From NCBI GenBank assembly GCA_012798115.1, contig JAAZNV010000006.1, positions 91,971 through 155,970 of the forward strand: a DNA stretch of 64,000 bases, in the 5' to 3' direction. Shown here in pieces: positions 43,357-60,259 of this stretch. This stretch comes from a candidate division WWE3 bacterium (GTDB taxonomy: Bacteria; Patescibacteriota; WWE3; UBA101185; UBA10185). The translations under genes were made by a program, and so were the position numbers. How positions within the stretch are numbered: position 1 is the stretch's first letter; each line of letters opens with the position of its first letter. The notes under the pieces are model-generated. The model did no database searches and had not been told where the DNA came from. It was given only the letters and a program-made list of their open reading frames with translations.

Positions 43357-44484
43357 ATGAAAATAGTTGTTGTTATACCTACTTATAATGAGGCAAAAAA
43401 CATTGGGCGCCTAATAGATGCTTTAAGTGTTGAGTTTAAAAATATTCCTAATCATGAAATGCACATTCTTGTGGTTGAAGGCAACTCCCCGGATGGGACA
43501 GCTAGAGTGGTTAAAGAAAAAGAAGCAATATTTCCATTTGTTCATCTTTTAATGGAAGAAAAGAAAGCAGGTCTTGGAGCTGCTTATGTTTATGGATTTA
43601 AATATGCAATGAATGAGCTAAAAGCAGATGTTGTTGTTGAAATGGATGCTGATTTTCAACATGACCCAAAGGAACTACCAAGTCTGATTAAAGAAATTGA
43701 TAACGGTTATGATTACGTTATTGGTTCCAGATTTGTGAAAGGGGGGAGTATTCCTAAAGAATGGGAACTAAAAAGGAAGCTTTTTAGCAAACTTGGCAAC
43801 TTAACTTCAAAGATTGTCTTAGGAATAAAGGGAGTTAATGATTTTACTACTGGTTACAAAGTATCTAGGGTAGAAGGGTTTGTAGATACTATTGATTTGG
43901 ATAACATATTGTCTAAAGGTTTTGCATATAAAATGGATCTTCTTTATAAAATGCATAAAGCTGGCGCTAAGATAAAAGAAGTTCCCATTCAGTTTCAAAC
44001 AAGGGATGAAGGAAGTTCTAAAATGGAAAAAAACAACTTAAAGGACTCTTTAAGAGTTGTTATTAGTCTTAGACTAAAGGATAAGAATACTCAGAAATTC
44101 TTGAAGTTTTGTGCCGTTGGATTAGTGGGTTTGATTACAGATACTGGACTTGCAAATGTTTTTAGATTGACAATCTTGAGTTCAAAAAATGCCCCTCTTG
44201 CATCAGGTTTTATTGCAATGCTTGTTACCTTTTTGTTGAATAACTTTTGGTCGTTTAATGAAAATAAGATACCTGGTGTAATAAATAAGACAAAGTATTT
44301 TATTATTTATTGTGTTTCTTCCTATATTCCGATAATTCTTAGGTCTTTCTTAGTGGGTTTTTTTGTTTCTTCTTTTGGAAATACTTTTATTGTTTTTAAT
44401 ATTGCATTTTTCATTGGAATTGTACTTGGCTTAATCTGGAACTTTACAGTTTATAATAAGATAATATGGAAGGACAAGAAATGA
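43357..44484 (+). CDS. DPM1/ArnC-like GT2 polyprenyl-phosphate glycosyltransferase fused to a C-terminal GtrA-like 4-TM domain
   Basis: VVIPTYNEAKNI, DADFQHDP (DxD), then GtrA-like FLKFCAVGLVGLITDTGLANVF plus 3 more TM. Confidence 0.75.
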   Translation: MKIVVVIPTYNEAKNIGRLIDALSVEFKNIPNHEMHILVVEGNSPDGTARVVKEKEAIFPFVHLLMEEKKAGLGAAYVYGFKYAMNELKADVVVEMDADFQHDPKELPSLIKEIDNGYDYVIGSRFVKGGSIPKEWELKRKLFSKLGNLTSKIVLGIKGVNDFTTGYKVSRVEGFVDTIDLDNILSKGFAYKMDLLYKMHKAGAKIKEVPIQFQTRDEGSSKMEKNNLKDSLRVVISLRLKDKNTQKFLKFCAVGLVGLITDTGLANVFRLTILSSKNAPLASGFIAMLVTFLLNNFWSFNENKIPGVINKTKYFIIYCVSSYIPIILRSFLVGFFVSSFGNTFIVFNIAFFIGIVLGLIWNFTVYNKIIWKDKK

Positions 44485-45254
44485 TTGAATACTCTATTGT
44501 TATACCTGCATATAATGAAGAAGATAAGGTTACAAGTTCGTTAACTCAAGTTGTCAACTTTATGAGAAGTTTTTGTAGCTCTTTTGAGGTTTTAGTGGTA
44601 AACGATGGAAGTAGGGATACAACAGCAGACAAAGTAGGGGAGTACGTGAGAGAAAATCCAGAGGTAAAACTTATTAATAACCCACATAGAGGAAAAGGTT
44701 ATGCTGTTTGGACTGGAATGCAAGAAGCTAAAGGAAAATTAGTATACATGGCAGATATGGATTTATCTGCTCCCATTGAGGAACTAAGGAAGCTGAGCAT
44801 TTGGATAAAGGATCAAGATTTTGATATTGTTATTGCCTCAAGAGAAGGCGTTGGAGCTAGAAGAATAGGTGAGCCGTTTTATAGGCATTTGATGGGAAGG
44901 GTGTTTAATGTTTTAGTTCAGTTAATAGCCCTTCCAGGGATAACTGACAGTCAGTGTGGTTTTAAGCTTTTTAAAGGAGACGTTGCTAAGGATATATTTG
45001 GAAGGTTGGATATTTATGGTAAAAAAGCTGTAGATATAGACAAAGCTTACCTTGGAGCATGGGATGTTGAAGTTTTGTATTTAGCCAGGAAATTAGGGTA
45101 TACTATCAAGCAGGTTCCGGTAACATGGACTTTTGTTAAAACTAAAAGGTTAAGTCCAGTCAAAGATTCTTTGAAAATGGCCTTAGATGTCTTAAAGATT
45201 AGAATTAATGATTTGAAGGGAAAATATAAATCTGCTCAAATGCCCCGCAAGTAA
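44466..45254 (+). CDS. GT2 glycosyltransferase (polyprenyl-phosphate sugar synthase-like)
   Basis: YSIVIPAYNEEDKV, VVNDGSRDTT, MADMDLSAP. Confidence 0.75.
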   Translation: MEGQEMIEYSIVIPAYNEEDKVTSSLTQVVNFMRSFCSSFEVLVVNDGSRDTTADKVGEYVRENPEVKLINNPHRGKGYAVWTGMQEAKGKLVYMADMDLSAPIEELRKLSIWIKDQDFDIVIASREGVGARRIGEPFYRHLMGRVFNVLVQLIALPGITDSQCGFKLFKGDVAKDIFGRLDIYGKKAVDIDKAYLGAWDVEVLYLARKLGYTIKQVPVTWTFVKTKRLSPVKDSLKMALDVLKIRINDLKGKYKSAQMPRK

Positions 45255-45285
45255 CTAGTATATATTTGGGGTGAATTATTAACAT

Positions 45286-46656
45286 ATGAAAATTTGTGTA
45301 ATAGGTACAGGTTACGTTGGTTTAGTTGGTGCTGCTATATTTTCTGATTGGGGAAACACTATTGTAGGTGTTGATATAGATTCAGAAAAGATAGAAAGAA
45401 TAAAAAAAGGTGAAATGCCCATTTATGAGCCTGGTCTTTCTGAAATTGTTTTGAAAAATATTTCTGAAGGAAGATTGTCATTTACCACATCTTTATCAGA
45501 AGGAATGAGAGATGCAGAGATAGTTTTTGTATGTGTAGGAACTCCCCAAAGTGAAACTGGAGATGCAGATTTAACTGCAGTTTGGAAAGTAGCGGAAGAA
45601 ATAGGTAGAAATCTGGAAACGTATAAAGTAATTGTTTTAAAAAGTACTGTTCCTGTGGGAACAAATGAAAAAGTTAAAAAGTTAATTAAAGATAATTTAA
45701 GATTTAACACAGAGTTTGATGTAGTTTCCAACCCTGAATTTTTAAGAGAAGGTTATTCTGTTGAAGATATGAAAAACCCAGATAGAACTGTAATTGGTTC
45801 TGACTCTCCAAAAGCTCTTTCTATTATGAAAAGTTTATATGCACATCTTGGAAAGCCAATTGTTGAAGCTGACTTTAAATCTGCAGAGATGATTAAATAC
45901 GCCTCAAATGCATTTTTAGCTTCAAAAATATCTTTTATTAATGAAATGGCTCAAATTTGTGAAAGATCTGGAGCTGATGTTTCAGTAGTAGCAAAAGGAA
46001 TGGGTTTAGACAGTAGAGTAGGTCCAAAATTCTTAAATGCTGGTATAGGTTATGGTGGCAGCTGTTTTCCTAAGGATGTTGCAGCATTATATAAGACGTC
46101 TACTGATCAAGCTTATGATTTCAAGCTCTTGAGGGGAGTTATGGAAGTTAATGAACTTCAAAAGAATTATTTTGTATCAAAGATAGTTAGATATTTTGGA
46201 GGAAATCTTTCTGGAAAGACTTTTGGAGTCTTAGGTCTTGCTTTTAAGGAGAACACTGATGATATTAGGGAATCTGTAGCAATAGAAGTAGTTAGAATAT
46301 TAAGAGGCTTAGGGGCTTATCTTAAAGTATTTGACCCGCAAGCTATGTATAACTCCAAGAAGGTTTTAGGAGAAGTTGATATTAAATATTGTTTAGATAA
46401 ATATGAAGCAATAGAAGATACTGATGCTTTGATAATCCTTACTGAATGGAAAGAATTTGGAACTATTGACTTAGAAAGAGTGAAAAACAGTTTAAAAAGC
46501 CATGTTATCTTTGATGGAAGGAACATCCTTGATAGAAAAAAGGTCGAAGAAGCTAGATTTACTTACTTTGCAATTGGAAAAAGAACAAATGGAACTGAAT
46601 TGCTTAGTAAAAGACCAACAGGTACTCCTGGTGTAATATTAAAGAATGGAGACTAA
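45286..46656 (+). CDS. ugd: UDP-glucose/GDP-mannose dehydrogenase family protein (likely UDP-glucose 6-dehydrogenase)
   Basis: MKICVIGTGYVGLVGA Rossmann; catalytic GYGGSCFPKDV. Confidence 0.8.
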   Translation: MKICVIGTGYVGLVGAAIFSDWGNTIVGVDIDSEKIERIKKGEMPIYEPGLSEIVLKNISEGRLSFTTSLSEGMRDAEIVFVCVGTPQSETGDADLTAVWKVAEEIGRNLETYKVIVLKSTVPVGTNEKVKKLIKDNLRFNTEFDVVSNPEFLREGYSVEDMKNPDRTVIGSDSPKALSIMKSLYAHLGKPIVEADFKSAEMIKYASNAFLASKISFINEMAQICERSGADVSVVAKGMGLDSRVGPKFLNAGIGYGGSCFPKDVAALYKTSTDQAYDFKLLRGVMEVNELQKNYFVSKIVRYFGGNLSGKTFGVLGLAFKENTDDIRESVAIEVVRILRGLGAYLKVFDPQAMYNSKKVLGEVDIKYCLDKYEAIEDTDALIILTEWKEFGTIDLERVKNSLKSHVIFDGRNILDRKKVEEARFTYFAIGKRTNGTELLSKRPTGTPGVILKNGD

Positions 46657-47854
46657 GAAAAAAATTCTTGTTTTTATCCCGCAATTCCCGGTTTTAACTG
46701 AAACCTTTATTGAAAGAGAATTATCTAAGTTAGTAGAAAGAAACAACATTGATTTAGCTATCGTAGCTTTATCTAAAGGAGAAGGGAATGTATCAGATAA
46801 CTTAAGGAACAAAATAAATTACAAGAGATTAAGTCTTTATGATGCTCCTTATATTCTCTTGTTTTTTCTTACACATTTTTCTAAGATTCTATCTTTAGTT
46901 AGTAGCATCGAAGGAAAGTGCTGTAAGAAGTTGTTCTTAGTACTGAAAGCTATTGGTTACTCAAGGTATTTTTCAACTTTTAAGCCTGATTTGATTTTTT
47001 CTCATTTTATGTCTGAACCATCTACAATTGCAATGATCTCATCAAAACTTATTGGAGTACCATTTGCAATATCTGCTCATGCCAGAGATATTATAATCAG
47101 TGCTGATAATATAGCTAAGAAAGTGGAATGGGCTGAGTTTATCACTATTTGTAACAAGAATGCATATAACTCATTTTTGGAGCTAGTTAGTGAAGAGTAT
47201 ACTTCTAACGTTTTTGTTTCTTACCATGGTGTTGATGTTAATAAACTTGTTAAAGATGTTAATCAAAGTGATGAAAAACTAAGTAAGTTGGATAGACCAC
47301 TAGTGCTTGGAGTGGGTAGGTTAACAGAAAAGAAGGGTTTTAAATATTTAATAGAAGCTTCAAAGATTCTTAAGGATAAAGGAGTATATTTTTATACATT
47401 CATTATTGGTTCTGGACCTCTTTACTTTGAATTAGAAGAGCAGATTAAGAAGTTAGATCTAATTGATTATGTAAGCATCTTGGGTGGAAATAAAGGTTTG
47501 CCAAACATAAAAGTTTTGAAGTACTTAAGCATTGCCGATGTGTTTGTATTGCCAAGTATTCAAACAAGAGAAGGTGATGTTGATGGTGTTGCTAATGTGT
47601 TGCTTGAAGCTGGAGCATTTAAGTTACCAATTGTGGCAACAAATGCTGGTAGTACATTAGAAGTAATTAAAGATAATGAGACTGGGTTAGTTGTTCCTCA
47701 AGAGAACGCCAACACTCTAGCTGACTCAATTGATAAAATACTTAAAGATGAAAATTTAAGTACAAGACTTGGACAAGGTGCTTACATTAAAATAATAGAA
47801 GATTTTGATTTAAACAAGAACGTAGAAAAGTTAGAGTTACTTTTAATGCAATGA
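46646..47854 (+). CDS. GT4 (GT-B) glycosyltransferase
   Basis: EGDVDGVANVLLEAGAFKLPIVATNAGSTLEVIKDNETGLVV (EX7E-type region). Confidence 0.75.
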   Translation: METKKKILVFIPQFPVLTETFIERELSKLVERNNIDLAIVALSKGEGNVSDNLRNKINYKRLSLYDAPYILLFFLTHFSKILSLVSSIEGKCCKKLFLVLKAIGYSRYFSTFKPDLIFSHFMSEPSTIAMISSKLIGVPFAISAHARDIIISADNIAKKVEWAEFITICNKNAYNSFLELVSEEYTSNVFVSYHGVDVNKLVKDVNQSDEKLSKLDRPLVLGVGRLTEKKGFKYLIEASKILKDKGVYFYTFIIGSGPLYFELEEQIKKLDLIDYVSILGGNKGLPNIKVLKYLSIADVFVLPSIQTREGDVDGVANVLLEAGAFKLPIVATNAGSTLEVIKDNETGLVVPQENANTLADSIDKILKDENLSTRLGQGAYIKIIEDFDLNKNVEKLELLLMQ

Positions 47855-49059
47855 AAATAGCTGTATTTATAAAATCAACAACATTTCATAAAGGGTATGG
47901 TGGCTTAGAAGTCCAAAACAAGACCATATGCGAAGAGTTGGTCAAAAGAGGGCATACAGTTATTGTTTTTTCTCCAAGAAAAGAATTGGAATGCTCTGAA
48001 AGAGAAGAAAATGGTGTTAAGTATATTTTTATTAATGCTAGCTATCGTGGGTATTTATTCTCGTCCTTAAAAGTAGACAGCTGGTACAAAAGGTCCTTAG
48101 AAGTTTTTACAGATTACCATAATAAAGAAAGTTTTGATTTAGTCTTAAGTCAAAGTTCTTCTGCAGAAAGCGTCATTGAAAACAAAAACTTTCTTGGTGT
48201 TAAGGTTGTTTCAATTTCTCATGGAACAGCAGCTTCTGAATATCTCACTTTTATTAAAAATATATCAAGATTAAAGGATATTTTGTGGTTGTTTAGGAAT
48301 ACTCAATATTTTCTTAGGCAATATTTTGGAAGACAAAGAAGGTTTATTAATCATTCAAATAGGATTATTGCTGTTTCTAATTATGTAAAGAAAGCTTTAG
48401 TGGAAGAAACGTTTGTGCCAGAAGACAAGATTAGTGTTATTCATAATGGTATAGACTCTGCTGATTATTCTAATGCTATGCTATTGAACCAAGGAACAAA
48501 GAATACATTAGGTGATGTTAAAAGCAAGGTTCAAATATATTTTCTAGGTAGGATAGAAAGATCCAAAGGTATATTTACTATTCTGGATATTGTTAAAGAT
48601 TTAGAATCAGGGTTCGTGTTGCATATTGTTGGTGATGGTCCTAATCTTGAGGAAGCTAGAGATAAAGCAAGGGTTTTAGGATTGTCTGATGATGTAATTT
48701 TTCATGGTAAATGCATTCATAAAGATTTTATTAAACTCTATAAACCTGATATTTTTGTTTTTCCAACAAAAAGAATAGAAGGATTTCCTATGGTTTTGGT
48801 TGAATCAATGTTTGCAGGTCTCCCTGTTGTTGCCTTTAATATGGGAGGGGTTTCTGATGCTGTTGAAGATGGAAAGACCGGTTATCTAGTAAAAGAAGGA
48901 GACACAAAGGAATTTAAAAAAAGACTAATTGAGTTAATGAGTGATCCTTCTTTAAGATTTATTCTTGGAAAGAATGCTAAAGAGAAGGCAGAAAATGAAT
49001 TTAGACTTGATAAAATGATAGATGCTTATGAAGGGCTTTTTAAGGAGACTTTAAAATGA
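47851..49059 (+). CDS. GT4 (GT-B) glycosyltransferase
   Basis: EGFPMVLVESMFAGLPVVAFNMGGVSDAVEDGKTGYLV. Confidence 0.75.
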   Translation: MKIAVFIKSTTFHKGYGGLEVQNKTICEELVKRGHTVIVFSPRKELECSEREENGVKYIFINASYRGYLFSSLKVDSWYKRSLEVFTDYHNKESFDLVLSQSSSAESVIENKNFLGVKVVSISHGTAASEYLTFIKNISRLKDILWLFRNTQYFLRQYFGRQRRFINHSNRIIAVSNYVKKALVEETFVPEDKISVIHNGIDSADYSNAMLLNQGTKNTLGDVKSKVQIYFLGRIERSKGIFTILDIVKDLESGFVLHIVGDGPNLEEARDKARVLGLSDDVIFHGKCIHKDFIKLYKPDIFVFPTKRIEGFPMVLVESMFAGLPVVAFNMGGVSDAVEDGKTGYLVKEGDTKEFKKRLIELMSDPSLRFILGKNAKEKAENEFRLDKMIDAYEGLFKETLK

Positions 49060-50252
49060 AAATACTAAGAATAGTTTATGATTGGCCACCACCATGGCAA
49101 GGTTTAGCACCTCATCCGTATGAATTAACCAGTGCTCAAACAAACATGAGTCATGAAGTGGAAGTGTTTTGTGGGAGATGGCCAAAAGCTGGAGAAATTG
49201 AGCAACCAAATGGTATAAAAGTTAATCCAATAATGAGAGAACCGCTTAGTGGCTCCATTTTTTTCACTAGCTCTGTTATTTTATTCTTCAAATATTTATC
49301 TTGGAGAAGAAAAAATAATCCAGATATTATTCATTCCCATGGACACTTTGGAGTTTGGATATACCTTTATAGGAAGTTGCTCCAAAAGTATTTCCCTTGG
49401 TCAAAAGAACTTAAGGTTCCGCTTGTTGTTCATTTTCATAACATAGCAAAGGATAGGTGGGATTCTATGAAGAAAGCTAAAAAAGAAATAAAGCCTATTT
49501 CGAGGTTCTTGGTTTGGCCATTGTCTGCTTTTTCAGATAAACAAGCAGTTAAGACTGCTTCTGCTTGCGTATTTGTTAGTGAAGATAATATGAAAAAAGC
49601 AATTGATCTTTATGGAGCTGATCCTAAAAGATGTTTTGTCGTGGAATCTGGTGTCAACCCAAGATTATTTAAACCAGTTAGTGTTGAAGAAAAAGAAAAG
49701 TCTAGAAAAGATATTGGTTTTGATATTGAGGACAAAGTTATTTTAAACCATGGTGTGATGTCAGAAAGAAAAAATGTTCATCTTCTTATAGAAGCTTTAA
49801 AATATCTTCCAAGGAATTACAAGCTTTTTCTAGTAGGTTCTGTGGATTCTGGATACACCTCAAAACTCAATACTTTAATTAAAGAAAATAACCTTATAGA
49901 TAGGGTAATGATGGCAGGATACACTCCTTATCCTTTAGCTCCAATTGCTTATCAAGTTTCAGATGTCTTTGTTCTTCCTTCTTCTTGGGAAGGGATGCCT
50001 AAAGTTGTTGTACAAGGATTAGCTTGTGGAATTCCTTGCCTTGTTTCAGGCTTTAAATTATCTGAAGAAATTAGAGGTTTATTCTACTTAGAAAGTTTAA
50101 ATCCTGAGCATATAGCTAGCTTTATTCTACAGATTGTAGAAAATCCAATGAGTGTAGATACTCAAAAAGTTGCCTTATATTACTCATGGGATTTTAGGGC
50201 TAAGGAAATAAATAATATTTATGAATTTGCCAAGAAGAATTATCTCATTTAA
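49056..50252 (+). CDS. GT4-like (GT-B) glycosyltransferase
   Basis: EGMPKVVVQGLACGIPCLVSGF; N-terminal half divergent. Confidence 0.6.
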   Translation: MKILRIVYDWPPPWQGLAPHPYELTSAQTNMSHEVEVFCGRWPKAGEIEQPNGIKVNPIMREPLSGSIFFTSSVILFFKYLSWRRKNNPDIIHSHGHFGVWIYLYRKLLQKYFPWSKELKVPLVVHFHNIAKDRWDSMKKAKKEIKPISRFLVWPLSAFSDKQAVKTASACVFVSEDNMKKAIDLYGADPKRCFVVESGVNPRLFKPVSVEEKEKSRKDIGFDIEDKVILNHGVMSERKNVHLLIEALKYLPRNYKLFLVGSVDSGYTSKLNTLIKENNLIDRVMMAGYTPYPLAPIAYQVSDVFVLPSSWEGMPKVVVQGLACGIPCLVSGFKLSEEIRGLFYLESLNPEHIASFILQIVENPMSVDTQKVALYYSWDFRAKEINNIYEFAKKNYLI

Positions 50253-51858
50253 ATATCCTTCCAAAATATCTTCTTTAAAGATTATTATTTTTCTTTTCTT
50301 TATCTTGTTACACTTGCTTTTGTTTAATGTTAACACTGCTGAGTGGGGTGATTCTTATAAAATACTTAGAGCATCAGAATTTATTAAAGAAGGAAGTTAC
50401 CCTGCTGATGAAAAAAGACCACCGGCTTTTTCCATGGTTCTAGCACTAAGACCTTTTCAAATGGACGCTATCTTGTGGGGTAGGGGAATTATGTTGATAT
50501 TTAGTATCTTGTCTTTTATTGTTTTTGATAAATTAATCTCCATTTTTATAAAAGAAAAAAAATATAAATTGATTTCTTTAATCATTTTTACCTTAAACCC
50601 TGTTTATTTATACTGGTCTTTAAGAATTATGGCGGATGTTCCATTTTCCTTTCTTGTTTTGTTATCTTCTTATCTTTTAACAAGGTGGAAAAATAGCTTA
50701 TCTATTTGGAAAAGCGTCTTAATTGGACTCATTTGTGGTTTAGCTATTTTAACTAGGTTTGAGGGTTATATTCTTTTGCTTTCTATGTTTGTTGGTATCT
50801 TGTTTGTAGATATACAAGGTCAACAGTTGCCATTTAAATTAAAAAATCTTCTAGGGTTGATGGCTAACAAACTGTCATATTTATTATCCTTAGGATTAAC
50901 GACCTTGGTTGTGATTTTGCCTTGGGTATTGTATCGTAATCCTTTTTCATCAAAATATTTCAATGAACCATCAGGAAGAACATATGATTTAAAAATGGTT
51001 TGGACTTACTTTTCTTCATTGTTTTACTTGTTTGGTTTTTCATCTGCGTTTTATTTCATTTTGAAATCATTTTTTAGTAACTTATGTGTTGCTAAATTTT
51101 TAAAAGAAAACATTGGCATAACTTTGTTTTTATCTCTTGAATTAATTCTCATCCTTTTATGGCCTGCAGCTATTCCAAGATTATTTGTTTCAGTAATTCC
51201 TTTCCTTATCATTTTATTTTCCTTGTCTTTTAAGGAATATGAAGAGAGCAATTTAAGCAATGCTAATAGGATTGATGTATGTTTCTTGGTTTTAATTTTA
51301 ATGTTTTATGTATTAAGTCAATTTATTCTCAAACTTCAATTTTTAATAGTTATAAGAGCTATCTTTGTAGTAATAATTTTGCTTCAAGCAGTTTCCATTT
51401 TATTTATTTACCTAAGGAAATTTAATCCAGCTTTGCTTGTATATGTTTTATCAGCCTTTATCTGGTCCTTGTCCACAGTTTATATCCATAAAGATATATA
51501 CACTGCAATAAAACAAGCCTCCTTGTATGCAGTTGATAACTTAGAAGGAAAGGTTGTTTATAATGATACAACTAGTGTTGCTCAATGGTATCTTAATTAC
51601 TTTAAACAAGGGAATTTCAAAGGTAGTACCTTGTATGGTGAATACTTAGATATGAGAAATTTAAATAATTTAAACTCAAATGTCTTATCTAGCTCCAAAG
51701 TTTCTTATGTTATTCTAACTAACGAAGACAGTATTAACTATGAGTCTGAGGTTGAAAAACTTAAATATCTAAATTTAATCAAAGATTTTAGGTATAATAT
51801 CGGAGATAAGCAGTTTTTTGCTAAAATATTTAAATTTAATGGAGGAACTTTTAAGTGA
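50221..51858 (+). CDS. ArnT/PMT-like GT-C membrane glycosyltransferase
   Basis: About 12 TM; first extracytoplasmic loop carries the acidic motif YPADEKRPPAF typical of GT39/GT83 enzymes. Confidence 0.65.
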   Translation: MNLPRRIISFKYPSKISSLKIIIFLFFILLHLLLFNVNTAEWGDSYKILRASEFIKEGSYPADEKRPPAFSMVLALRPFQMDAILWGRGIMLIFSILSFIVFDKLISIFIKEKKYKLISLIIFTLNPVYLYWSLRIMADVPFSFLVLLSSYLLTRWKNSLSIWKSVLIGLICGLAILTRFEGYILLLSMFVGILFVDIQGQQLPFKLKNLLGLMANKLSYLLSLGLTTLVVILPWVLYRNPFSSKYFNEPSGRTYDLKMVWTYFSSLFYLFGFSSAFYFILKSFFSNLCVAKFLKENIGITLFLSLELILILLWPAAIPRLFVSVIPFLIILFSLSFKEYEESNLSNANRIDVCFLVLILMFYVLSQFILKLQFLIVIRAIFVVIILLQAVSILFIYLRKFNPALLVYVLSAFIWSLSTVYIHKDIYTAIKQASLYAVDNLEGKVVYNDTTSVAQWYLNYFKQGNFKGSTLYGEYLDMRNLNNLNSNVLSSSKVSYVILTNEDSINYESEVEKLKYLNLIKDFRYNIGDKQFFAKIFKFNGGTFK

Positions 51859-52538
51859 AATTATCTGTTGTGATACCTTGCTATAACGAGAAGAATACTA
51901 TAGAAAAGATAGTAGATTTAGTTAAGGGTGTAGAAAGCATAGAAAAGGAAATAATTATAGTTGATGATGCCTCAAAGGATGGAACCGTAGATGTGCTAAA
52001 GAGCATCGAGAAGAAATATCCTGATATAAAAGTTATATATAAAGAAGTAAACAAAGGCAAAGGTGATACTTTAAAAGTAGGTTTTCAACATACAACTGGA
52101 GATTATGTAATTGTTCAAGATGCTGATCTTGAATACGACCCTCAAGACTACGTAAAGCTCTTAAAGGTTCTTGAAGAAGGAGTAGATGTGGTTTACGGGT
52201 CTAGGTTTTTAGGTAAATACGAAAAAATGACTACCCTTCACTACTTTGGAAATAAGTTTTTAACTTTAGTTACTAATCTTTTGTTTGGGGTAACACTTAC
52301 TGATATGGAAACTTGCTATAAATTAATGCCTGGGGATTTTGTAAGAAAACTTGATATTAAATCATCTAGATTTGAGTTTGAGCCGGAAATAACAGCTAAG
52401 ATACTTAAGTCTGGATTAAAAATAAAGGAAGTCCCCATTTCATATAAGGGAAGAAGTTTTAGTGAAGGAAAGAAGATGACGTGGAAAGATGGTTTTAATG
52501 CTATCTATTCCCTTGTTAAGTTTAAATTTTTTGATTGA
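51855..52538 (+). CDS. DPM1/ArnC-like GT2 polyprenyl-phosphate glycosyltransferase
   Basis: LSVVIPCYNEKNTI, IVDDASKDGT, QDADLEYDP. Confidence 0.8.
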   Translation: MKLSVVIPCYNEKNTIEKIVDLVKGVESIEKEIIIVDDASKDGTVDVLKSIEKKYPDIKVIYKEVNKGKGDTLKVGFQHTTGDYVIVQDADLEYDPQDYVKLLKVLEEGVDVVYGSRFLGKYEKMTTLHYFGNKFLTLVTNLLFGVTLTDMETCYKLMPGDFVRKLDIKSSRFEFEPEITAKILKSGLKIKEVPISYKGRSFSEGKKMTWKDGFNAIYSLVKFKFFD

Positions 52539-52564
52539 AGTTGGTTAAGTTTTGGAAATTAAAC

Positions 52565-54715
52565 ATGGTTAAAAAAATCGTTAAGCTTATTAAAGAAAAT
52601 ATCTTTCTTGTGATTGTTATTGGTTTTATGGCTGTGAACTTTTTTGTTGCTCTAAGGCTAAACGTTTTTAGGTACAATAATTTTGACTTTGGAAAATTTG
52701 ATCAAGGAAACATGACTCAGATGGTTTGGAACACATTAAGAGGAAGGGTTATGTACCTAACAGATTACTTTGGTTCTAATGTACCAAGATGGGCAATGAG
52801 TCATGTAGATCCAATTCTTTTATTGTTTGTGCCTGTTTTTGCAATTTTTCCACATCCCATGACACTGGCGTATGCTCAGCTTGTACTAGTGATTTTATCC
52901 GCACTTTTTATCTTTGAAATCACTAGGATGGAGCTTAAGTCCAAGTCAGCTGCTTGTTTCTTTAGTTTTGCTTATCTTTTATACCCATCTATGGGTTTCA
53001 TTAACGGAACAATGGGTTTTCATGGTGTGACTGCAGCAGTTCCATTTTTCTTAGCTGCCTTTTACTTGTTTGAAAAGATGTATAAGGAAGATAGCTTTTC
53101 TAAAAAGAAAGTTATTCTTTTCTGGATACTTTTAGTGATAACTATGTCTGGGAAGGAACAAATTCCTTTGTACATAATAATGTGGGGTTTGTTCATTCTT
53201 TTATTTAGAACAACTAAAGGTGAGGGGGCCACGTTAAAATTTAAGTTAAATAAAGACTGGTTGAAAAAGTTTTTTAATTTAAAACCCGCTAGACTTGGTT
53301 TAAGTATGATTATTTTTGGCTTACTGTGGTTTGTAATTGCATTTTTTGTAGTAATTCCAAAGTACGCACCACTTAGAACTGAAAGTTACAAAAAATTTGT
53401 AGAGTCTATAAACGTTTCGTTTGTTAGCAATAGTGATGTAACACTTCCTAATTACTTTTTAAGCAGGTATGGAGATTTTGGGTCTTCTTATAAAGAAGTG
53501 ATCATCAATATGCTTCTTAGCCCTAAAAAGGCTATTAAAGTCTTCTTAAGTGGGGATAGGCTTGATAGTTTAAACAGGACATTTGCTCCTGTTTCTTATC
53601 TTCCCTTAGCTAATCCATTTATGCTATTAATCTCAGCTCCAGATTTTGCTATCAACTATATGACCACATCAGAAGGTTTAGGAACTGAAGAAATTGAAAA
53701 TCATAGAATATCAATGATTATTCCTGTTCTTTTTATCTCTAGTATTTATGCAGTTTCTTTTCTTGCCAGCTTGTTTGAAGAATTACTTCCAAAATACAAG
53801 AATATAAAAACAGCACTTGTAGTAGTTATTTCTGGAGTTGTTTTGATTTCATGTGTTAAAACTTCATCTGATTACAATAACCCAATGTATTTGTGGTTTA
53901 ATCAAGCTATAAAAAAACGAGTATTTGCTAAATATGACCAAGAGTTGATTAAAGATTCTAATCTTCAAGTAGGTACTGTTGTTAGGCTTCCTGATTTGGA
54001 TGTCAAAGATTATGCGTGTGCTAAGGCTGTTGTAGAAATGATTCCAGATGGAGCTTCTGTTTCTGGGCCAGACAATTTGGGAACTCATTTGAGTATGAGA
54101 GAAACTTATGCAATATATCCTTCATTATGGAATTCAGCGGATTATGTTATTGTTAACGTTTTATCAAGAAAGTTGCTTGCAATTCTCCAATTGAACACAA
54201 ATATAGTTAGAGATGTGACTAAGAATGTGATTGCAAGTAAAGATTACAAACTCATTCTTGGTTGTGGGAATTTATTTTTATTTCAAAGAGGAGCTTCTCA
54301 AGACAAGCTTGAACCATACCCAATACAAGAAAGGTACGTGTATGACTATAAATATAATTTTGAGTTTACAGACACTTTAAAAGTAGTTGACTTTAAGCTT
54401 CCTGCAAGAGTTAAAAGAGGAATTCCTGATAAAAATACAATTGTATATCAACGATCTGGAGATGGAGCATTAGATGGTTTTGTTTTGTATATGACTTATG
54501 TGAATAAAGAAGATCAAAGTATTTATCAAGTAGCCAATCTTCCTTCATTTGCCATTAACAGACCATCTGATTGGACAAAAGAAAGGTATTACATAGAAAA
54601 TGTGGATGTAGCTCTTCCTTCTTATTTAAAGCCTGGAAATTATCAAGTATTTGTTAGTTTATCAAATAAAATAAAGTATAGAAGTTTGTACTTAGGTGAT
54701 TTAATTGTTGAGTAA
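52565..54715 (+). CDS. large polytopic membrane protein (DUF2079-like; candidate GT-C)
   Basis: About 12 TM N-terminal region with FDFGKFDQGNMTQMVWNTLRG, then a ~280 aa soluble C-terminal domain; an alternative TTG start at 52535 overlaps the GT2 stop. Confidence 0.55.
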   Translation: MVKKIVKLIKENIFLVIVIGFMAVNFFVALRLNVFRYNNFDFGKFDQGNMTQMVWNTLRGRVMYLTDYFGSNVPRWAMSHVDPILLLFVPVFAIFPHPMTLAYAQLVLVILSALFIFEITRMELKSKSAACFFSFAYLLYPSMGFINGTMGFHGVTAAVPFFLAAFYLFEKMYKEDSFSKKKVILFWILLVITMSGKEQIPLYIIMWGLFILLFRTTKGEGATLKFKLNKDWLKKFFNLKPARLGLSMIIFGLLWFVIAFFVVIPKYAPLRTESYKKFVESINVSFVSNSDVTLPNYFLSRYGDFGSSYKEVIINMLLSPKKAIKVFLSGDRLDSLNRTFAPVSYLPLANPFMLLISAPDFAINYMTTSEGLGTEEIENHRISMIIPVLFISSIYAVSFLASLFEELLPKYKNIKTALVVVISGVVLISCVKTSSDYNNPMYLWFNQAIKKRVFAKYDQELIKDSNLQVGTVVRLPDLDVKDYACAKAVVEMIPDGASVSGPDNLGTHLSMRETYAIYPSLWNSADYVIVNVLSRKLLAILQLNTNIVRDVTKNVIASKDYKLILGCGNLFLFQRGASQDKLEPYPIQERYVYDYKYNFEFTDTLKVVDFKLPARVKRGIPDKNTIVYQRSGDGALDGFVLYMTYVNKEDQSIYQVANLPSFAINRPSDWTKERYYIENVDVALPSYLKPGNYQVFVSLSNKIKYRSLYLGDLIVE

Positions 54716-54720
54716 AAACT

Positions 54721-56205
54721 ATGAAAGAATTAGGAAAATGGCAAATAGTTAGTATGATAGCTCAAGGTTTGGCCATGATTTCTGGAGCAGTTCAAACCTT
54801 CGTTATTATTAGGATTCTTAGTGTTGGAGAATGGGGTATTGTTCAACTGGCAACGTCTATTGGAGGAGCTTTAGGGATTTATCAGCACTTAGGGCTTGTG
54901 TCAGCAAGTACTAGAGAAATATCCTCTGCAGAGAAAAAGGAAGATATATTTAAGATTTTTATTACTTCCACTGCAGTTAGATATTGTGTGACATTGCCTC
55001 TTGCCATAGGTCTTTTCTTTTATTCAAAGTCTCTTGCAGTGAATATTTATCATAACGAAAGCTTGATTATTCCGTTAAAGATGTATGCTCTTTCTTTAGT
55101 TTTTCAAGGTGTCCAAGGAATACTAAACTCTGTGATTTCTGGAATGCAAAGGTTTAAGACATTGTTTGTATATCAAATTGTAATTTCTTATGTAAGTATT
55201 CTTTTGTACATTCCTCTTGTTCATTTCTTTAGAATCAATGGGTATTTTTATGCTTTCCTTTTGTTTAATATCATATCTTCTATTGTTTTGTCTGTTTTAG
55301 CCTTTAAGCCGTTAAAAGGAAAGCTGATTTTACCATCAAAGAAAGATTTTATGAGATTATTTAAGGAAATATTTTCAATTAGTATTGCTATTTATGTAGT
55401 TAAAATTTTATATACAAATTGGGAAAAGCTTGGAAGTAATGCTTTAGGGTTGTTCAATTCACCAGAAGTTGTGGCTATATATGCTTTTGCAATGCTTTAT
55501 GCAAAAAAGATAATGAGTATTTCAGATTCTGTTACTACAGTTAACATTCCTGTGTTTTCAGAAAGATATGCTAAAAACTTCAATGAGTTTAAAGAAACTT
55601 TTGTTAAAAACTTTAATAAATTATTTTCTTTGATAGTCTTTATCGGATCTTTTGCTTCTTACTTTGCTCCAGATGTAATTAGACTACTTGTTGGCGGAAA
55701 TAAGTATAATGAATCTTTTTCTCTCATTGCTCCTATGGTTTTTGCCTTCATAATATATTCTTTTGTAAACATAATAAGTTCCAGTGTTTTAATACCAGCC
55801 AAGATGGCAAAAAGCATGGTAGGAAGTTATGTATTTTTGATAGTAGGATCTGTTTTAAGTTTCTTTGGACTTTATAAGTTTATAGATCTTCTTTCTGCTG
55901 TTTCATGGGCAATGACTTTTGGAAGCATAATATGTCTTGGATTTATGCTCTACTGGATTAAAAAGAAAATGAATTTTAGTTTCTTTAATATTGATCATGT
56001 GGTTATTCTCTTACAAGGGTTTTTTATTGCATGGCTTTGTAAGGTTGATGTTTTTTGGTTTAAAATTGCTGCCTTTGTTCCTTTTGCATCTCTTCTTTTG
56101 TGGTCTTTGTTTGTGTCAAAATTTTTTACGAAAGAAGATGTAATGTCCATGTTTAGAAAGTTTAAAGGGCTAGTTCCTAAAAAATTAACCTCAAGGGCAG
56201 AATAA
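54721..56205 (+). CDS. Wzx-like MOP-superfamily oligosaccharide flippase
   Basis: About 14 TM polysaccharide-biosynthesis-protein architecture. Confidence 0.6.
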   Translation: MKELGKWQIVSMIAQGLAMISGAVQTFVIIRILSVGEWGIVQLATSIGGALGIYQHLGLVSASTREISSAEKKEDIFKIFITSTAVRYCVTLPLAIGLFFYSKSLAVNIYHNESLIIPLKMYALSLVFQGVQGILNSVISGMQRFKTLFVYQIVISYVSILLYIPLVHFFRINGYFYAFLLFNIISSIVLSVLAFKPLKGKLILPSKKDFMRLFKEIFSISIAIYVVKILYTNWEKLGSNALGLFNSPEVVAIYAFAMLYAKKIMSISDSVTTVNIPVFSERYAKNFNEFKETFVKNFNKLFSLIVFIGSFASYFAPDVIRLLVGGNKYNESFSLIAPMVFAFIIYSFVNIISSSVLIPAKMAKSMVGSYVFLIVGSVLSFFGLYKFIDLLSAVSWAMTFGSIICLGFMLYWIKKKMNFSFFNIDHVVILLQGFFIAWLCKVDVFWFKIAAFVPFASLLLWSLFVSKFFTKEDVMSMFRKFKGLVPKKLTSRAE

Positions 56206-56207
56206 AA

Positions 56208-57107
56208 ATGAAAAAGATAAAAGAAAAACTTAAAACATTATTTAAGATTACAGTTAGTATAGTTTTGATTGTTTATCTTGTTTTAAATAAAGTAGATAAA
56301 AATGAACTAATAAGAAATTTTAAACTCTTAGATTGGAGGTTTATTCCTTTAATTTTTATCCTTATTGTTTCTCATTATATTGTTAGCTCCTTTAGGTGGA
56401 AATCTCTTCTTGTTCATGATAAGGCAAAGAATGTTTCTCCTCTTTATTTGTTTAACCTTTACTTTATAGGAGCGTTCTTTAATAACTTTATGCCTACAAG
56501 TGTTGGGGGAGATGTCTATAAAGCATATATGCTGTCAAAGAAAATTGATGATTCTGCAATTGGACTTTCATCTGTGTTTACAGAAAGATTTACAGGGATA
56601 ATAATGCTTGCCTTGATTGCATTGCTGAGTTTATCTAAAAGTTTAGGTTTTAAGGTTTTAATTCTTATTATTTGGCTTGTTATGGGAATTTATCTTGGTC
56701 TTTATGCCTTAAAGTTATTAAGTAAAACTAAATTTAAGTTCTTTAAGAAAGTTTATGATGCTCTAATGATATATAGGAATTATCCTAAGGTACTTCTTTT
56801 TGCTATGCTTTCTTCCATTATTGTTCAAGTTCTTTCTATTCTCACTCAATACTTTACATTTATGGCAATAGGAGTTAGGCTTCCAATATTTTATTCGTTT
56901 TTAGCATTTCCTGTAATAACACTAGCTGGTTTCTTTATTCCTTCTCTTAATGGTTATGGGGTTCAAGATGCTTTATATATGAGCATGTTTTCTCTTGTGG
57001 GTGTTCCTGCAGAAACTGCTGTTTCTGCTTCCATTATTTATCACCTGTTAAGACTAGGTGTGAGTTTAATTGGAGGGGTTTTGTATGCTCTTGGAAAAGA
57101 TTCGTAA
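56208..57107 (+). CDS. UPF0104 / lysylphosphatidylglycerol-synthase-TM-like flippase-domain membrane protein
   Basis: 8 TM; N-terminal LVLNKVDKNELIRNFKLLDWRFIPL and a FNNFMPTSVGGDVYKAYML segment typical of this family. Confidence 0.55.
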   Translation: MKKIKEKLKTLFKITVSIVLIVYLVLNKVDKNELIRNFKLLDWRFIPLIFILIVSHYIVSSFRWKSLLVHDKAKNVSPLYLFNLYFIGAFFNNFMPTSVGGDVYKAYMLSKKIDDSAIGLSSVFTERFTGIIMLALIALLSLSKSLGFKVLILIIWLVMGIYLGLYALKLLSKTKFKFFKKVYDALMIYRNYPKVLLFAMLSSIIVQVLSILTQYFTFMAIGVRLPIFYSFLAFPVITLAGFFIPSLNGYGVQDALYMSMFSLVGVPAETAVSASIIYHLLRLGVSLIGGVLYALGKDS

Positions 57108-58734
57108 AGCCTTTTCCTTTTTAAGTCAAGCTGAAAAGAATAAATTATCCAGGTGTGCACTTTTATTGATCTTTGTATTCTTATTCTTTGCAACAAGGAT
57201 TCCTTATTTATCTAAGGATACAATAAATCCAGATGGAGTAAATTGGCATTATAGGTCTCAGCAATTTGTTGTTGGTTTGAAGTTTCTCCAATTTGAAAAA
57301 ACATATCAGCATTATCACCCTGGTGTGACCTTAATGTGGGTTACAGGAATTCCAATAGAAATATTTAAGCAAGTAACTAATATTAAAGATTATAACTTGT
57401 ATAACTTCCAAGCCTTTGATTTTATTGCTAAGTTTTCATTAGTTATTGTTCAGCTTGTCTTATCTTTACTGGTTATTTATGCTCTTTCTAAGATAGTAGG
57501 CTTTAATAAGTCTTTTCTAACAGTTGTCTTTTTTTCTTTTGAACCCTTTTTTGTAGGTAATTCTCGCTTGTATCACATGGATACTCTTCTTTCTATTCTT
57601 TTGTTCTTAGCAATAATTTTTTCCTTTCTTAATCTTAAAAACCCTTCATTTGGAATGTCTTTACTTTCTGGATTATTTCTTGCTTTATCTTTTTTAACTA
57701 AAAGTGTTTCAATAGGAGCCGTTCTTTTTGTTGTTTTATATGCTTTGGCTTACTTTGTTTATTCAAAACAATATAAAAGCATTCTTCCTTATGTTGCTTA
57801 CACCTTGTTTTTCTTTGTGTTATTCACATTCTTACTTTTTCCGGCTCTTTGGGAAAACCCCATATATTATCTTTCTTTGATATTTAAGGAAGCTGCTAGG
57901 GTAGGTATAAGGAAAGGGCATGGACAAGTAGTATTTGGGGAATATACAAGAGATCCTGGGTTTTGGTTTTATCCCTTGGTTTTACTCGTTAAAACAAGTC
58001 CATTTACAATTATTGGTTGCATACTCTTTGTAGTGTCATCTATCAAGAGTTTAGTTATTGATGTAAAGGAAAACATTAAGAATGAGATTAAAATGTTTAA
58101 AGACACTAAGAAGAAGTTCTTAAATTTTGGTTTTTACATTGCTGTTTTTTATCTTGGATATGTGTTTAGCATGTCCTTTCCGACAAAGAAGATAGATAGA
58201 TATATGTTGGTTGTTTATCCGTTTATGGCTTATTTAGCTGTTGTTGGATACGGGAAAGTATTTTTATTCTTAAAAAGTAAGGTAAAAAAGCTTATGTTTT
58301 GGTCTACAATATCTTTATTGTGTTTAGTTTTTTGGGTTATGCCTTTTGTTAGAGTTTATCCTTACTATTTTACTTACACTAGTCCTTTATTTATTAACTC
58401 GCAAACTGCAAATAAAATAGTTGCTCAAAAGCCTTTTGGAATTGGAATGTATGATTTAAAGGAACTTATTGTTAAAAGATATGGGAGTTCAAAAAATCTT
58501 ATGACTCCAAAATTAGCATTTGTAGACACTAAGCCGATGAAATCTATTTATCCCAACTCAAAAGTATTTGATGTTAGAGTATCAGGACCAGGGCAGTATG
58601 ACCTTTTGGTATTAGGTGTCAATGAAGATATACCTGAGAATATAGAAAACAGTAAATATACATTTGAAAAAGATGCTTCTATGTGGATTAATGGTCTTGA
58701 GTACTGGAGGATTTATGTCAAAAAAGAAAAGTAA
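57085..58734 (+). CDS. ArnT/PMT-like GT-C membrane glycosyltransferase (paralog 1 of 3 in tandem)
   Basis: Polytopic; HYHPGVTLMWVTGIPIE shared with paralog 3; GGAGGGG RBS before ATG 57085. Confidence 0.65.
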   Translation: MLLEKIRKAFSFLSQAEKNKLSRCALLLIFVFLFFATRIPYLSKDTINPDGVNWHYRSQQFVVGLKFLQFEKTYQHYHPGVTLMWVTGIPIEIFKQVTNIKDYNLYNFQAFDFIAKFSLVIVQLVLSLLVIYALSKIVGFNKSFLTVVFFSFEPFFVGNSRLYHMDTLLSILLFLAIIFSFLNLKNPSFGMSLLSGLFLALSFLTKSVSIGAVLFVVLYALAYFVYSKQYKSILPYVAYTLFFFVLFTFLLFPALWENPIYYLSLIFKEAARVGIRKGHGQVVFGEYTRDPGFWFYPLVLLVKTSPFTIIGCILFVVSSIKSLVIDVKENIKNEIKMFKDTKKKFLNFGFYIAVFYLGYVFSMSFPTKKIDRYMLVVYPFMAYLAVVGYGKVFLFLKSKVKKLMFWSTISLLCLVFWVMPFVRVYPYYFTYTSPLFINSQTANKIVAQKPFGIGMYDLKELIVKRYGSSKNLMTPKLAFVDTKPMKSIYPNSKVFDVRVSGPGQYDLLVLGVNEDIPENIENSKYTFEKDASMWINGLEYWRIYVKKEK

Positions 58735-60259
58735 GACAATACTTTTGATAGTTTTACTTTGTGCACTAGTTTTAAGGCTTGCTGGGATAACCCATGGCTT
58801 CCCCTTTATATTTCATCCAGATGAACCAACTATTGTTAGATCTGCATTAGGAATTAGATTTAATTTAAATCCTAAGCACTTTGACTGGTCTCATTTATAT
58901 ATGTATCTTAATTACTTCTTATATATGATGTTTTCTAGGTGTAGAAATATGTTGGGAATTCTAGGGATAAGAAATGCTATCTCAACATTGTTTCCTTTAG
59001 TATGGAATGATGATTTAGTCTTCTACTTTTTAACAAGGTGTTTTTCAGCAATACTTGGAGCCTTAACAGTAATTCCAGTTTATTTATCCGCAAGAAAATT
59101 ATTTAATGAAAAAGCTGCTTTGTTCTCTGCCTTTTGTATGGCCTTTCTTCCTTATCATGTTTGGCACTCTCATTACTCTTTAGGAGATGTTCCAATGGTT
59201 TTTTTCCTTTCTTGGGGCCTTTATTTCTCCTGTTTGATATTAAATGACTCTAAGATAAAAAATTATGTACTTTCGGGGCTTTTTATTGGTCTATCAGCGT
59301 CTACTAAGTACAACGGTGGTTTATCAGCTTTAATGGTTCCTACAGCTCATTTTTTAAGGGTGTTGGGTACAGTTAAGATGAGTGGAAAAAAGGTTAAAAT
59401 ACTGGATTTTAAGGGCATTTTAGCCTTAATTTTATCTGGGTTTAGTGCTCTTGTAGGGTTTTTAATAGGCACTCCTTATGCTCTTTTAGACTTTAAGACT
59501 TTTTCAAGAACAGATAGTCCTAAAGGAGCTTTTTGGCAGTTTACAAATGTTGGATCCATTGGTTTTACAAAGCACTTTACTCAGTTTTTCAATGAGCTTT
59601 TTGTAAGTGTATCAAGCAACATGGGATGGGTAACAATACTTGCTTATGTTCTTACGTTTTTTTATTTAATGTTTACAGTGTTAAAAAAGAAAAACAATGA
59701 AGTTATACATAAACTAATGTTTTTGTATATAAACTCTTTATTTCTTTTTTGGTATATTTCTGGATTTAAAAATACCAGAGCACATTATTACTTTGTTTTT
59801 TATCCGTTTGCTGCAGTGATATTTGGATTTTTTGTGTCAAAGGTTAATGATTGGCTTCTTGCTAAGAAAAAACTTTATTCTTCCTTGTTTATACTTTTAA
59901 TGTGCCTTCCTTTAGTAATTTTCTCAATTAAGAACTCATACTCTTTTTATAAAGGAGATACTAGGAATGATTTGTATGATTGGCTTGTTTTAAATCTTAA
60001 GGTAGGAGAAAATATATTTTATAACGATATAAAAGCATCTGATGTATTTGATAAGCTACAAGTCAACGCAAAAAAAGGTTTTGATAATTTGACAACTACA
60101 AATAGTGCCTTAGTGATTGTTCTTGATCCTGAGAATTCTACAGATTTTCTTGCTAAGAATTCTTCTTACTTAACTAAAGAAAAATCTTTTAGTAATAATT
60201 TAAGGTTAGGCCCAAACATTGAGATCTATAGGTATCAAAATGAAAAATTTACTAAGTAA
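58715..60259 (+). CDS. ArnT/PMT-like GT-C membrane glycosyltransferase (paralog 2)
   Basis: Loop-1 HPDEP acidic motif, PYHVWHSHYSLGDVP; GGAGGA RBS before ATG 58715. Confidence 0.65.
   Translation: MSKKKSKTILLIVLLCALVLRLAGITHGFPFIFHPDEPTIVRSALGIRFNLNPKHFDWSHLYMYLNYFLYMMFSRCRNMLGILGIRNAISTLFPLVWNDDLVFYFLTRCFSAILGALTVIPVYLSARKLFNEKAALFSAFCMAFLPYHVWHSHYSLGDVPMVFFLSWGLYFSCLILNDSKIKNYVLSGLFIGLSASTKYNGGLSALMVPTAHFLRVLGTVKMSGKKVKILDFKGILALILSGFSALVGFLIGTPYALLDFKTFSRTDSPKGAFWQFTNVGSIGFTKHFTQFFNELFVSVSSNMGWVTILAYVLTFFYLMFTVLKKKNNEVIHKLMFLYINSLFLFWYISGFKNTRAHYYFVFYPFAAVIFGFFVSKVNDWLLAKKKLYSSLFILLMCLPLVIFSIKNSYSFYKGDTRNDLYDWLVLNLKVGENIFYNDIKASDVFDKLQVNAKKGFDNLTTTNSALVIVLDPENSTDFLAKNSSYLTKEKSFSNNLRLGPNIEIYRYQNEKFTK

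Follow-up and report, generated by a model that had tools for sequence, protein, structure and literature searches.

Introduction

Glycosyltransferases of the GT-C type build or decorate most extracytoplasmic glycans, and in mycobacteria PpgS (Rv3631; NCBIfam NF058614) pairs with the GT-C Rv3779. Here we analyze a 64,000-nucleotide (nt) stretch of DNA from a candidate division WWE3 bacterium (the window; about 32% G+C), in which a gene at 52565-54715 encodes a membrane protein of the DUF2079 family (PF09852), and we argue that this protein is likely an extracytoplasmic glycosyltransferase. Among the closest described systems are three-component ones, GtrA/GtrB/Gtr* and ORF15/ORF14/ORF12 (GT136) of Citrobacter youngae (PMC11127046). 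New GT-C families are still founded on single characterized members, as GT136 was in that paper, whose discussion notes that direct evidence for the flipping of the lipid-linked donor is generally lacking.

In the literature searched, "PF09852" appears in one paper only, a general study of membrane-protein motifs, and searches on PF03706, on WWE3 glycosyltransferases and flippases, on GT-C proteins of Patescibacteria, and on CL0111 found nothing on the DUF2079 family. We know of no CAZy family for DUF2079, and PF09852 presumably belongs to the Pfam GT-C clan. A preliminary description of the window, made from the letters of the DNA, had singled out the DUF2079 gene and its two upstream neighbors, a family 2 glycosyltransferase (GT2) and a GT-C; we compare these three genes with their relatives in WWE3 and elsewhere.

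A DUF2079 protein with a predicted GT-C fold

The three genes, and the parts of them discussed below, are the following.

52565-54715, plus strand: DUF2079 protein of 716 amino acids (aa), a polytopic membrane protein with a predicted GT-C fold (PF09852; AlphaFold, AF2; Foldseek)
52682-52813, plus strand: first extracytoplasmic loop of this protein, residues 40-83, FDFGKFDQGNMTQMVW...RWAMSHVDP, with invariant D46, Q52, W55, and H80
53873-54712, plus strand: predicted extracytoplasmic C-terminal region, residues 437-716 (AF2 secondary structure)
52535-52537, plus strand: TTG overlapping the GT2 stop codon, proposed earlier as the DUF2079 start and rejected here
51855-52538, plus strand: GT2 of 227 aa with a catalytic domain of the polyprenyl-phosphate sugar synthase type (PF00535, E 1.4e-35)
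51841-51846, plus strand: Shine-Dalgarno sequence GGAGGA, read from the sequence, with its end 8 nt upstream of the GT2 start codon, GTG
50221-51858, plus strand: GTC50, a PMT_2-type GT-C membrane glycosyltransferase of 545 aa (Pfam, hhalign)

The PF09852 profile matched the large open reading frame (ORF) with an E value of 5.4e-33 and 115.2 bits against a gathering threshold of 28.2 bits, covering profile positions 2-422 of 459 and residues 47-541 of the 726-aa translation that begins at TTG 52535, and all 120 of the 120 homologues listed carry it, which bears out the earlier placement of the protein in DUF2079. Homologues that carry an organism name are all Patescibacteria or candidate division WWE3.

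An AlphaFold model of the window protein, built from 70 homologues (pLDDT 88, pTM 0.84), had GT-C enzymes as all of its best Foldseek matches, namely STT3A (1.4e-6), AglB (2e-5), DPY19 (9.6e-5), PglB (4.8e-4), and ArnT (3.7e-3). A core model of the distant 470-aa member P0196 (pLDDT 95.5, pTM 0.94), built from an independent alignment of Chloroflexi and candidate phyla radiation (CPR) sequences, gave 17 matches at E<=1e-3, every one of them a GT-C (STT3A/B, PglB, DPY19, ALG9, ArnT); ArnT had the highest template modeling score (TM-score), 0.56, and the next matches were AftA and ALG3. When a broad DUF2079 profile was compared with the PMT_2-type families of the window by hhalign, the probability was 79-88% over the core formed by transmembrane helices 3 to 6 (TM3-TM6). 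Judged by these models, DUF2079 is a family with a class A-like GT-C glycosyltransferase fold, and the suggestion of a GT-C-type transferase made in the preliminary description stands as far as the fold is concerned. The polymerase offered there as an alternative found no fold support: the 50 matches listed for each of the two models include no structure of a Wzy, WaaL, or SEDS protein, and Pfam gave no such match either.

Compared with class A enzymes (STT3/PglB/AglB, DPY19, ALG9, ArnT), the protein shares the overall fold in both Foldseek comparisons and likewise has an N-terminus predicted to lie inside, an invariant aspartate in its first outer loop, and a soluble domain that follows the final helix. 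It differs in lacking sequence-level similarity to solved structures and in its own invariant set of D46, H80, H153, K197/E198, and R512; the WWDYG motif of oligosaccharyltransferases is absent, as WW[DE][YWF]G, or even WWD, was found in 0 of 138 DUF2079 sequences. With the PMT_2/ArnT-like family (PF13231), the broad profile shows the weak TM3-TM6 homology given above, one distant DUF2079 member matches PMT_2 with an E value of 1.2e-4, and four PMT_2 paralogues lie in the same cluster and the same orientation as the DUF2079 gene. PMT_2 is nevertheless a separate Pfam family, the window DUF2079 protein has no PMT_2 match in Pfam, and its first-loop motif, FDxGN(M)xQxxWN, differs from the DE/PD-type loop of the PMT_2 paralogues.

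The chain begins with a lysine-rich N-terminus followed by about 9-11 transmembrane helices (AF2 helices, hydropathy). An alignment of 138 combined sequences from WWE3, Chloroflexi, and other CPR lineages has ten residues that are invariant in all 138, D46, Q52, W55, H80, Q105, P141, H153, E198, P387, and R512, and K197 is conserved at 96%; the family-wide motifs FDxGN.xQ..WN (first loop), H.DP, FH, KE, and HLS.R are all present in the window protein. The topology predicted from AF2 helices, hydropathy, and the placement of lysines and arginines (positive-inside rule) puts the N-terminus in the cytoplasm and D46, Q52, W55, and H80 in the first outer loop after TM1, with H153 and K197/E198 on the next outer loops, Q105 where the second membrane helix reaches the outer face, and R512 in an alpha/beta domain after the last membrane helix. 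D46 (codon 52700-52702) lies 8 residues after TM1 (helix 13-38) and, judged by its place in the chain, would sit where GT-C enzymes have their catalytic acid. An acid in the first loop, further residues on outer loops, and one in a later domain form the layout expected for a GT-C active site by the general description in PMC11127046, and these residues may well cluster in space.

The C-terminal region consists of the alpha/beta domain (about 437-560), which includes R512, and a beta-sandwich (about 561-716). In the WWE3-type protein the beta-sandwich lies outside the Pfam DUF2079 match; it is absent from the 470-aa P0196, and Foldseek gave weak local matches (E about 1e-2) to the C-terminal carbohydrate-binding domain of Wzt and to Ig-like barrels. 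Two cysteines of the C-terminal domain, C485 and C567, are invariant among 70 WWE3-type proteins, which is consistent with an extracytoplasmic disulfide.

The preliminary description had the large protein start at a TTG within the end of GT2, giving 726 aa and translational coupling through the overlap. The GT2 stop codon at 52536-52538 does overlap a TTG, but orthologue N-termini and gene calls make the TTG an unlikely start, and the proposed length and coupling are not confirmed. An identical protein in the database (P0001) has a gene call of 716 aa. The orthologue in L001 (86% identical) has no upstream start, and the first residue of its longest ORF aligns with ATG 52565. In 49 of 72 orthologues the longest ORF opens no more than 2 residues from the same point. 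Because these three lines agree, ATG 52565 is most likely the real start; a weak GGA lies 8 nt upstream of it, the protein has 716 aa, and a 26-nt spacer separates it from GT2.

The upstream GT2 and GT-C genes

By itself, GTC50 matches PMT_2 weakly in Pfam (E 0.0086); a profile built from 59 GTC50 orthologues aligns in hhalign with the PMT_2-type family of ORF 58664-60259 at 97% probability (E 3.4e-11, 423 columns), so we take GTC50 to be a GT-C, in agreement with the earlier reading of this ORF as ArnT-like.

The GT2 gene starts with GTG, ends with TGA at 52536-52538, and encodes no transmembrane segment. Its best solved relative is the dolichyl-phosphate mannose synthase of Pyrococcus furiosus (5mlz; E 3.9e-21, residues 1-222 aligned to 23-248, a full-length match), followed by ArnC (about 1e-15) and GtrB (2e-12), and in NCBIfam it matches AglJ, PgfS, ArnC, a haloarchaeal dolichyl-phosphate hexose transferase, and PpgS, all below the equivalog cut-offs. 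These comparisons support the class of a lipid-sugar synthase of the dolichyl-phosphate mannose synthase (DPMS)/ArnC/GtrB type, and the polyprenyl-phosphate sugar synthase of the preliminary description is thus upheld at the level of type. GTC50 and GT2 share a 4-nt stop/start overlap, GTGA at 51855-51858, the only real overlap of this kind in the region, and 14 other loci also show a -4 overlap here.

GT2 and DUF2079 across WWE3 loci

Species-representative genomes were scanned and yielded 80 loci, every one from Patescibacteria/WWE3. GT2 stands directly upstream of DUF2079 in 69 of the 75 WWE3-type loci with enough flanking sequence, the gap being -4 to +20 nt in most, and this adjacency is kept in the most distant loci, L076-L079 (28-34% identity). 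Among the 69 loci with at least 2.6 kb of upstream sequence, the upstream GT-C and GT2 are distributed as follows.

Upstream GT-C present, GT2 present: 61 loci
Upstream GT-C absent, GT2 absent: 6 loci
Upstream GT-C absent, GT2 present: 2 loci
Upstream GT-C present, GT2 absent: 0 loci

DUF2079 is retained in all six double absences (L003, L060, L051, L058, L071, L080), which fall in at least four separate places of a neighbor-joining tree of DUF2079 proteins. In the first five of them DUF2079 comes after the third family 4 glycosyltransferase (GT4) gene, four of them with either a gap of 1-33 nt or an overlap of 26 nt and L060 with a gap of 579 nt, and in L080 a PMT_2-type GT-C gene precedes it instead. 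The two loci with GT2 only, L020 and L066, are sister lineages with a split cluster; the break lies between the upstream GT-C and GT2, and GT2-DUF2079-Wzx opens a new unit beside unrelated divergent genes.

Because the upstream PMT_2-type GT-C never occurs without GT2, whereas DUF2079 does, the distribution suggests that this GT-C is the obligate client of GT2 and that DUF2079 would be at most a facultative user. GT2 and DUF2079 are not inherited jointly in the manner of a Gtr-type module, as DUF2079 stands without GT2 in 6 of the 75 loci, so GT2 is probably not its dedicated partner, and DUF2079 may share the donor made by GT2 or use the product of another GT2 of the cluster. We also considered that GT2 belongs only to the upstream GT-C; this is tempered by L020 and L066, where GT2 stays with DUF2079.

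DUF2079 outside WWE3

DUF2079 is widespread: a profile search of 1.84 billion representatives returned 5709 DUF2079 proteins (representative clusters) at E<=1e-3, with named distant relatives in Anaerolineae, Dehalococcoidia, Levyibacteriota, and Acidobacteria. Ninety-one contexts outside WWE3, made up of 11 distant genes and 80 metagenome loci, were inspected, and only two of them have an adjacent GT2. In L083 (Dehalococcoidia), the sole GT2 operon among the 11 distant genes, a GtrB-like GT2, a methyltransferase, and DUF2079 follow one another, with a PF03706 gene 6 kb downstream; in L091 a GT2 overlaps DUF2079, the only adjacent GT2 among the 80 metagenome loci. The preliminary description had proposed co-occurrence of DUF2079 with GT2 genes as a check, and beyond WWE3 such linkage is rare. 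Its argument that position makes DUF2079 a user of the GT2 donor is at best weakly supported: the split clusters L020 and L066 favor it, and the six loci without GT2 and these 91 contexts weigh against it.

What does recur outside WWE3 is a fusion to PF03706 (LPG_synthase_TM), a domain chiefly known for flipping a phospholipid (lysyl-phosphatidylglycerol). It is matched by 13 of 70 distant representatives, N-terminal to DUF2079 in those examined, and about 55 of the 80 metagenome loci encode an N-terminal extension of about 300 aa, which matched PF03706 over its full length in Pfam in 9 of 10 tested. Examples of the fusion are P0166, P0171, P0186, P0190, and P0294 and, among L092-L170, L094:2020-4425. 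A hidden Markov model of PF03706 built from WWE3 proteins did not recognize the fused N-terminal domains, and the Pfam model did. Since many other lineages join the two in one protein (Rosetta-stone evidence), the flippase serving DUF2079 would most likely be the PF03706 protein.

Some members carry more. The proteins of about 1100 aa, P0186, P0229, P0249, P0297, and P0320 (L086:8001-11306), have a C-terminal alpha/beta-hydrolase (Peptidase_S9/BD-FAE/Hydrolase_4), which in P0186, P0249, and P0297 is combined with an N-terminal PF03706 match. In five places (L081, L082, L085, L086, and that of P0304), DUF2079 genes of about 775-1100 aa with the N-terminal extension of about 300 aa share a context: a gene of about 270 aa resembling ATP-cone/Mrr_cat lies directly downstream in four of the five and one gene further in the fifth, and in three of them an operon for a membrane fusion protein, an ATP-binding cassette (ABC) protein, and FtsX (MacB type) has its end 8 nt inside DUF2079 or shortly ahead of it. 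Near DUF2079 in those five places, glycosyltransferase genes are absent.

The surrounding gene cluster

The remaining features of the window that belong to the cluster or adjoin it are listed here.

42108-43097: CAP/SCP-domain protein with a hydrophobic C-terminal segment (PF00188, E 3e-16)
43357-50252, plus strand: upstream half of the conserved cluster (Pfam; order conserved in 80 loci)
43357, plus strand: GT2 fused to a GtrA domain, 32% identical to the GT2 at 51855 (Pfam)
44466, plus strand: GT2, 26% identical to the GT2 at 51855 (Pfam)
45286, plus strand: enzyme of the UDP-glucose/GDP-mannose dehydrogenase family (Pfam)
46646, 47851, and 49056, plus strand: three GT4 enzymes (Pfam)
54721-56205, plus strand: Wzx-type flippase (Polysacc_synt; Pfam)
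56208-57107, plus strand: PF03706 (LPG_synthase_TM, MprF flippase-like) membrane protein of 299 aa (E 4.6e-46)
57070-58734, 58664-60259, and 60219-61922, plus strand: three PMT_2-type GT-C genes (Pfam PMT_2/PMT, E 1e-8 to 9e-15)
61912-63198, plus strand: second Wzx-type flippase (Pfam)
From about 63166 to the window end, plus strand: fourth GT2 (sequence)

From 43357 to the window end, ORFs of at least 80 aa are all on the plus strand, with the sole exception of a short minus-strand ORF at 45423-45731, and they overlap or are separated by small gaps. A scan for promoters and terminators across the row of genes gave no signal above chance; because no such signal separates them, we regard GTC50, GT2, and DUF2079 as operonic, tightly packed, and surely co-transcribed.

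The cluster spans about 20 kb and holds four GT2 genes of the DPMS-like synthase type, three GT4 genes, one sugar dehydrogenase gene, two Wzx genes, one PF03706 gene, and five genes for GT-C-fold proteins, four of the PMT_2 type plus DUF2079, so that the DUF2079 gene is surrounded by 15 other glycan-synthesis genes. No initiating phosphoglycosyltransferase was seen in the cluster, and no Wzy- or WaaL-type protein was matched by Pfam among the cluster genes examined.

The gene order is shared by the 80 Patescibacteria/WWE3 loci, even at identities as low as 27%, and runs CAP-domain protein, GT2-GtrA, GT2, dehydrogenase, three GT4, GT-C, GT2, and DUF2079, then Wzx, (PF03706), three PMT_2 GT-C, Wzx, and GT2. 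Wzx is directly downstream of DUF2079 in 64 of 68 WWE3-type loci. The PF03706 gene, which in the window stands free, two genes downstream of DUF2079, was found in 46 of 65 WWE3 loci.

Some further observations concern the edges and variants of this arrangement. In most WWE3 loci, the CAP/SCP-domain gene (42108-43097 in the window) is conserved as the first gene beside the cluster. In 19878-42059, the stretch immediately preceding the glycan cluster, the sizes and order of ORFs resemble rpoB/rpoC (1111 and 1222 aa), rpsL/rpsG, fusA, and tuf, and also ribosomal-protein operons and secY, a likeness judged from ORF sizes only. The clade without the upstream GT-C and GT2 includes two loci with an extra ORF of about 480-500 aa between DUF2079 and Wzx (L058:12093-13586 and L071:12055-13488), which matches no window protein. 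A tblastn search of plasmids gave no match.

Discussion

The explanation that we favor, with somewhat better than even confidence in it as a whole, is that the DUF2079 protein is an extracytoplasmic GT-C-type transferase in an envelope-glycan cluster. The protein would work outside the cytoplasmic membrane, its donor would be a polyprenyl-phosphate-linked sugar that has been flipped across the membrane, and the sugar would be added to a cell-envelope glycan or glycoconjugate built by the cluster of about 20 kb. The lipid-linked donor is suggested by the lipid-sugar synthase-type GT2 genes and by the flippase-like genes and fusions.

Several results weigh against this explanation. The TM-scores over whole chains are modest (0.35-0.56), sequence searches of the Protein Data Bank with the single protein and with the 70-sequence profile gave no meaningful match to solved structures, and a narrow, WWE3-only profile reached 2-15% in hhalign against the PMT_2-type families of the window, which is not significant. 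The presumed superposition of D46 on a known catalytic aspartate is drawn from its place in the chain, and donor, acceptor, and flippase are assigned from gene context. The PF03706 gene is absent from 19 of 65 WWE3 loci, and GT2 is usually the neighbor of DUF2079 in WWE3, also in the split clusters. The family lacks a characterized member, and the literature search found no paper with "DUF2079".

The adjacency of GT2 leads to the alternative that survives best, in which the GT2 at 51855 makes a specific polyprenyl-phosphate sugar for DUF2079 as its dedicated partner, as GtrB does with a serotype-specific GT-C. A direct donor relation between the two is possible, because GT2 adjoins DUF2079 in 69 of the 75 loci, L076-L079 included, and the split clusters keep GT2-DUF2079-Wzx together; L083 and L091 add two independent cases outside WWE3. 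Dedication of the pair is unlikely, however: DUF2079 persists without GT2 in the six loci of at least four lineages, where the upstream GT-C was lost each time, 89 of the 91 contexts outside WWE3 have no nearby GT2, and in the window the 4-nt overlap and a strong Shine-Dalgarno sequence tie GT2 to the upstream GT-C, while DUF2079 follows after a 26-nt spacer.

We consider it distinctly doubtful that DUF2079 acts on undecaprenyl-diphosphate-linked oligosaccharides, built by the GT4 enzymes and flipped by Wzx, either by en bloc transfer like an oligosaccharyltransferase or ligase or by polymerization. Oligosaccharyltransferases are the best structural matches (STT3A, AglB, and PglB for the window model; STT3A, STT3B, and PglB for the core model), Wzx follows DUF2079 in most WWE3 loci, the cluster genes examined have no Wzy/WaaL-type Pfam match, and DUF2079 persists without a neighboring GT2. 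The oligosaccharyltransferase reading was nevertheless downgraded on the absence of WWDYG, and the monosaccharide-donor enzymes DPY19, ALG9, and ArnT score about equally, ArnT with the highest TM-score. Neither model had a Wzy, WaaL, or SEDS structure among its 50 listed matches, the usual fusion partner elsewhere is an MprF-type flippase-like domain and not Wzx, and the cluster shows no initiating phosphoglycosyltransferase. That DUF2079 keeps a GT-C fold without being a glycosyltransferase, as a scaffold or in acting on a flipped phospholipid-type substrate, would suit the phospholipid flippase domain PF03706, the Peptidase_S9/BD-FAE-type hydrolase of some members of about 1100 aa, and the fused forms, most of which have MacB-type ABC genes upstream instead of glycosylation genes nearby, but it is improbable, as every significant fold match is an active glycosyltransferase, the invariant Asp/His/His/Glu/Arg on the predicted outer face would indicate catalysis, and the window gene lies among 15 other glycan-synthesis genes.

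We also make a wider proposal, tentatively and as less likely than not. DUF2079 could be an unrecognized active GT-C family whose natural partner is PF03706 and not GtrA, SMR, MATE, or Wzx; the fusions of many CPR and related lineages could each be a single protein that flips and transfers, and the separate WWE3 genes could be part of an assembly line in which five GT-C-fold proteins make an envelope glycopolymer of these uncultivated bacteria with reduced genomes. If true, PF03706 proteins would be candidate polyprenyl-phosphate-sugar flippases.

The predicted GT-C fold and the defined invariant residues of DUF2079 offer direct targets for mutagenesis, and the recurrent PF03706 fusion is a testable lead on the flippase of the lipid-linked donor. 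The conservation of a 20-kb cluster beside what by ORF size look like ribosomal-protein operons points to an important and unstudied envelope glycan in Patescibacteria. The most useful leads, in our view, are the fusion to a flippase domain and the presence of five GT-C-fold proteins in one cluster; the finding adds to an established enzyme class and an established pathway logic and is not surprising in kind.

In conclusion, the window cluster resembles the three-component systems in encoding a polyprenyl-phosphate sugar synthase, flippase candidates, and a GT-C together, and, where PMC11127046 describes ORF12 of C. youngae, that GT-C likewise has an extra, possibly carbohydrate-binding beta-sandwich, as DUF2079 does here. 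It differs from them in its numbers, with four synthase-type GT2, five GT-C-fold proteins, and four flippase candidates that leave the pairings ambiguous, in that the GT2 beside DUF2079 co-varies with another GT-C, and in that the flippase linked to DUF2079 by fusion is of the MprF type (PF03706) and not GtrA, SMR, or MATE. The window GT2 also matches the model of PpgS essentially end to end (E 4.5e-15, profile positions 4-216 of 226), but because its 55.7 bits are far below the equivalog cut-off of 370, the likeness to the mycobacterial pair is one of analogy and not of orthology. DUF2079 is thus best placed beside these systems as an uncharacterized member of a known enzyme class, recognized in a known kind of pathway.

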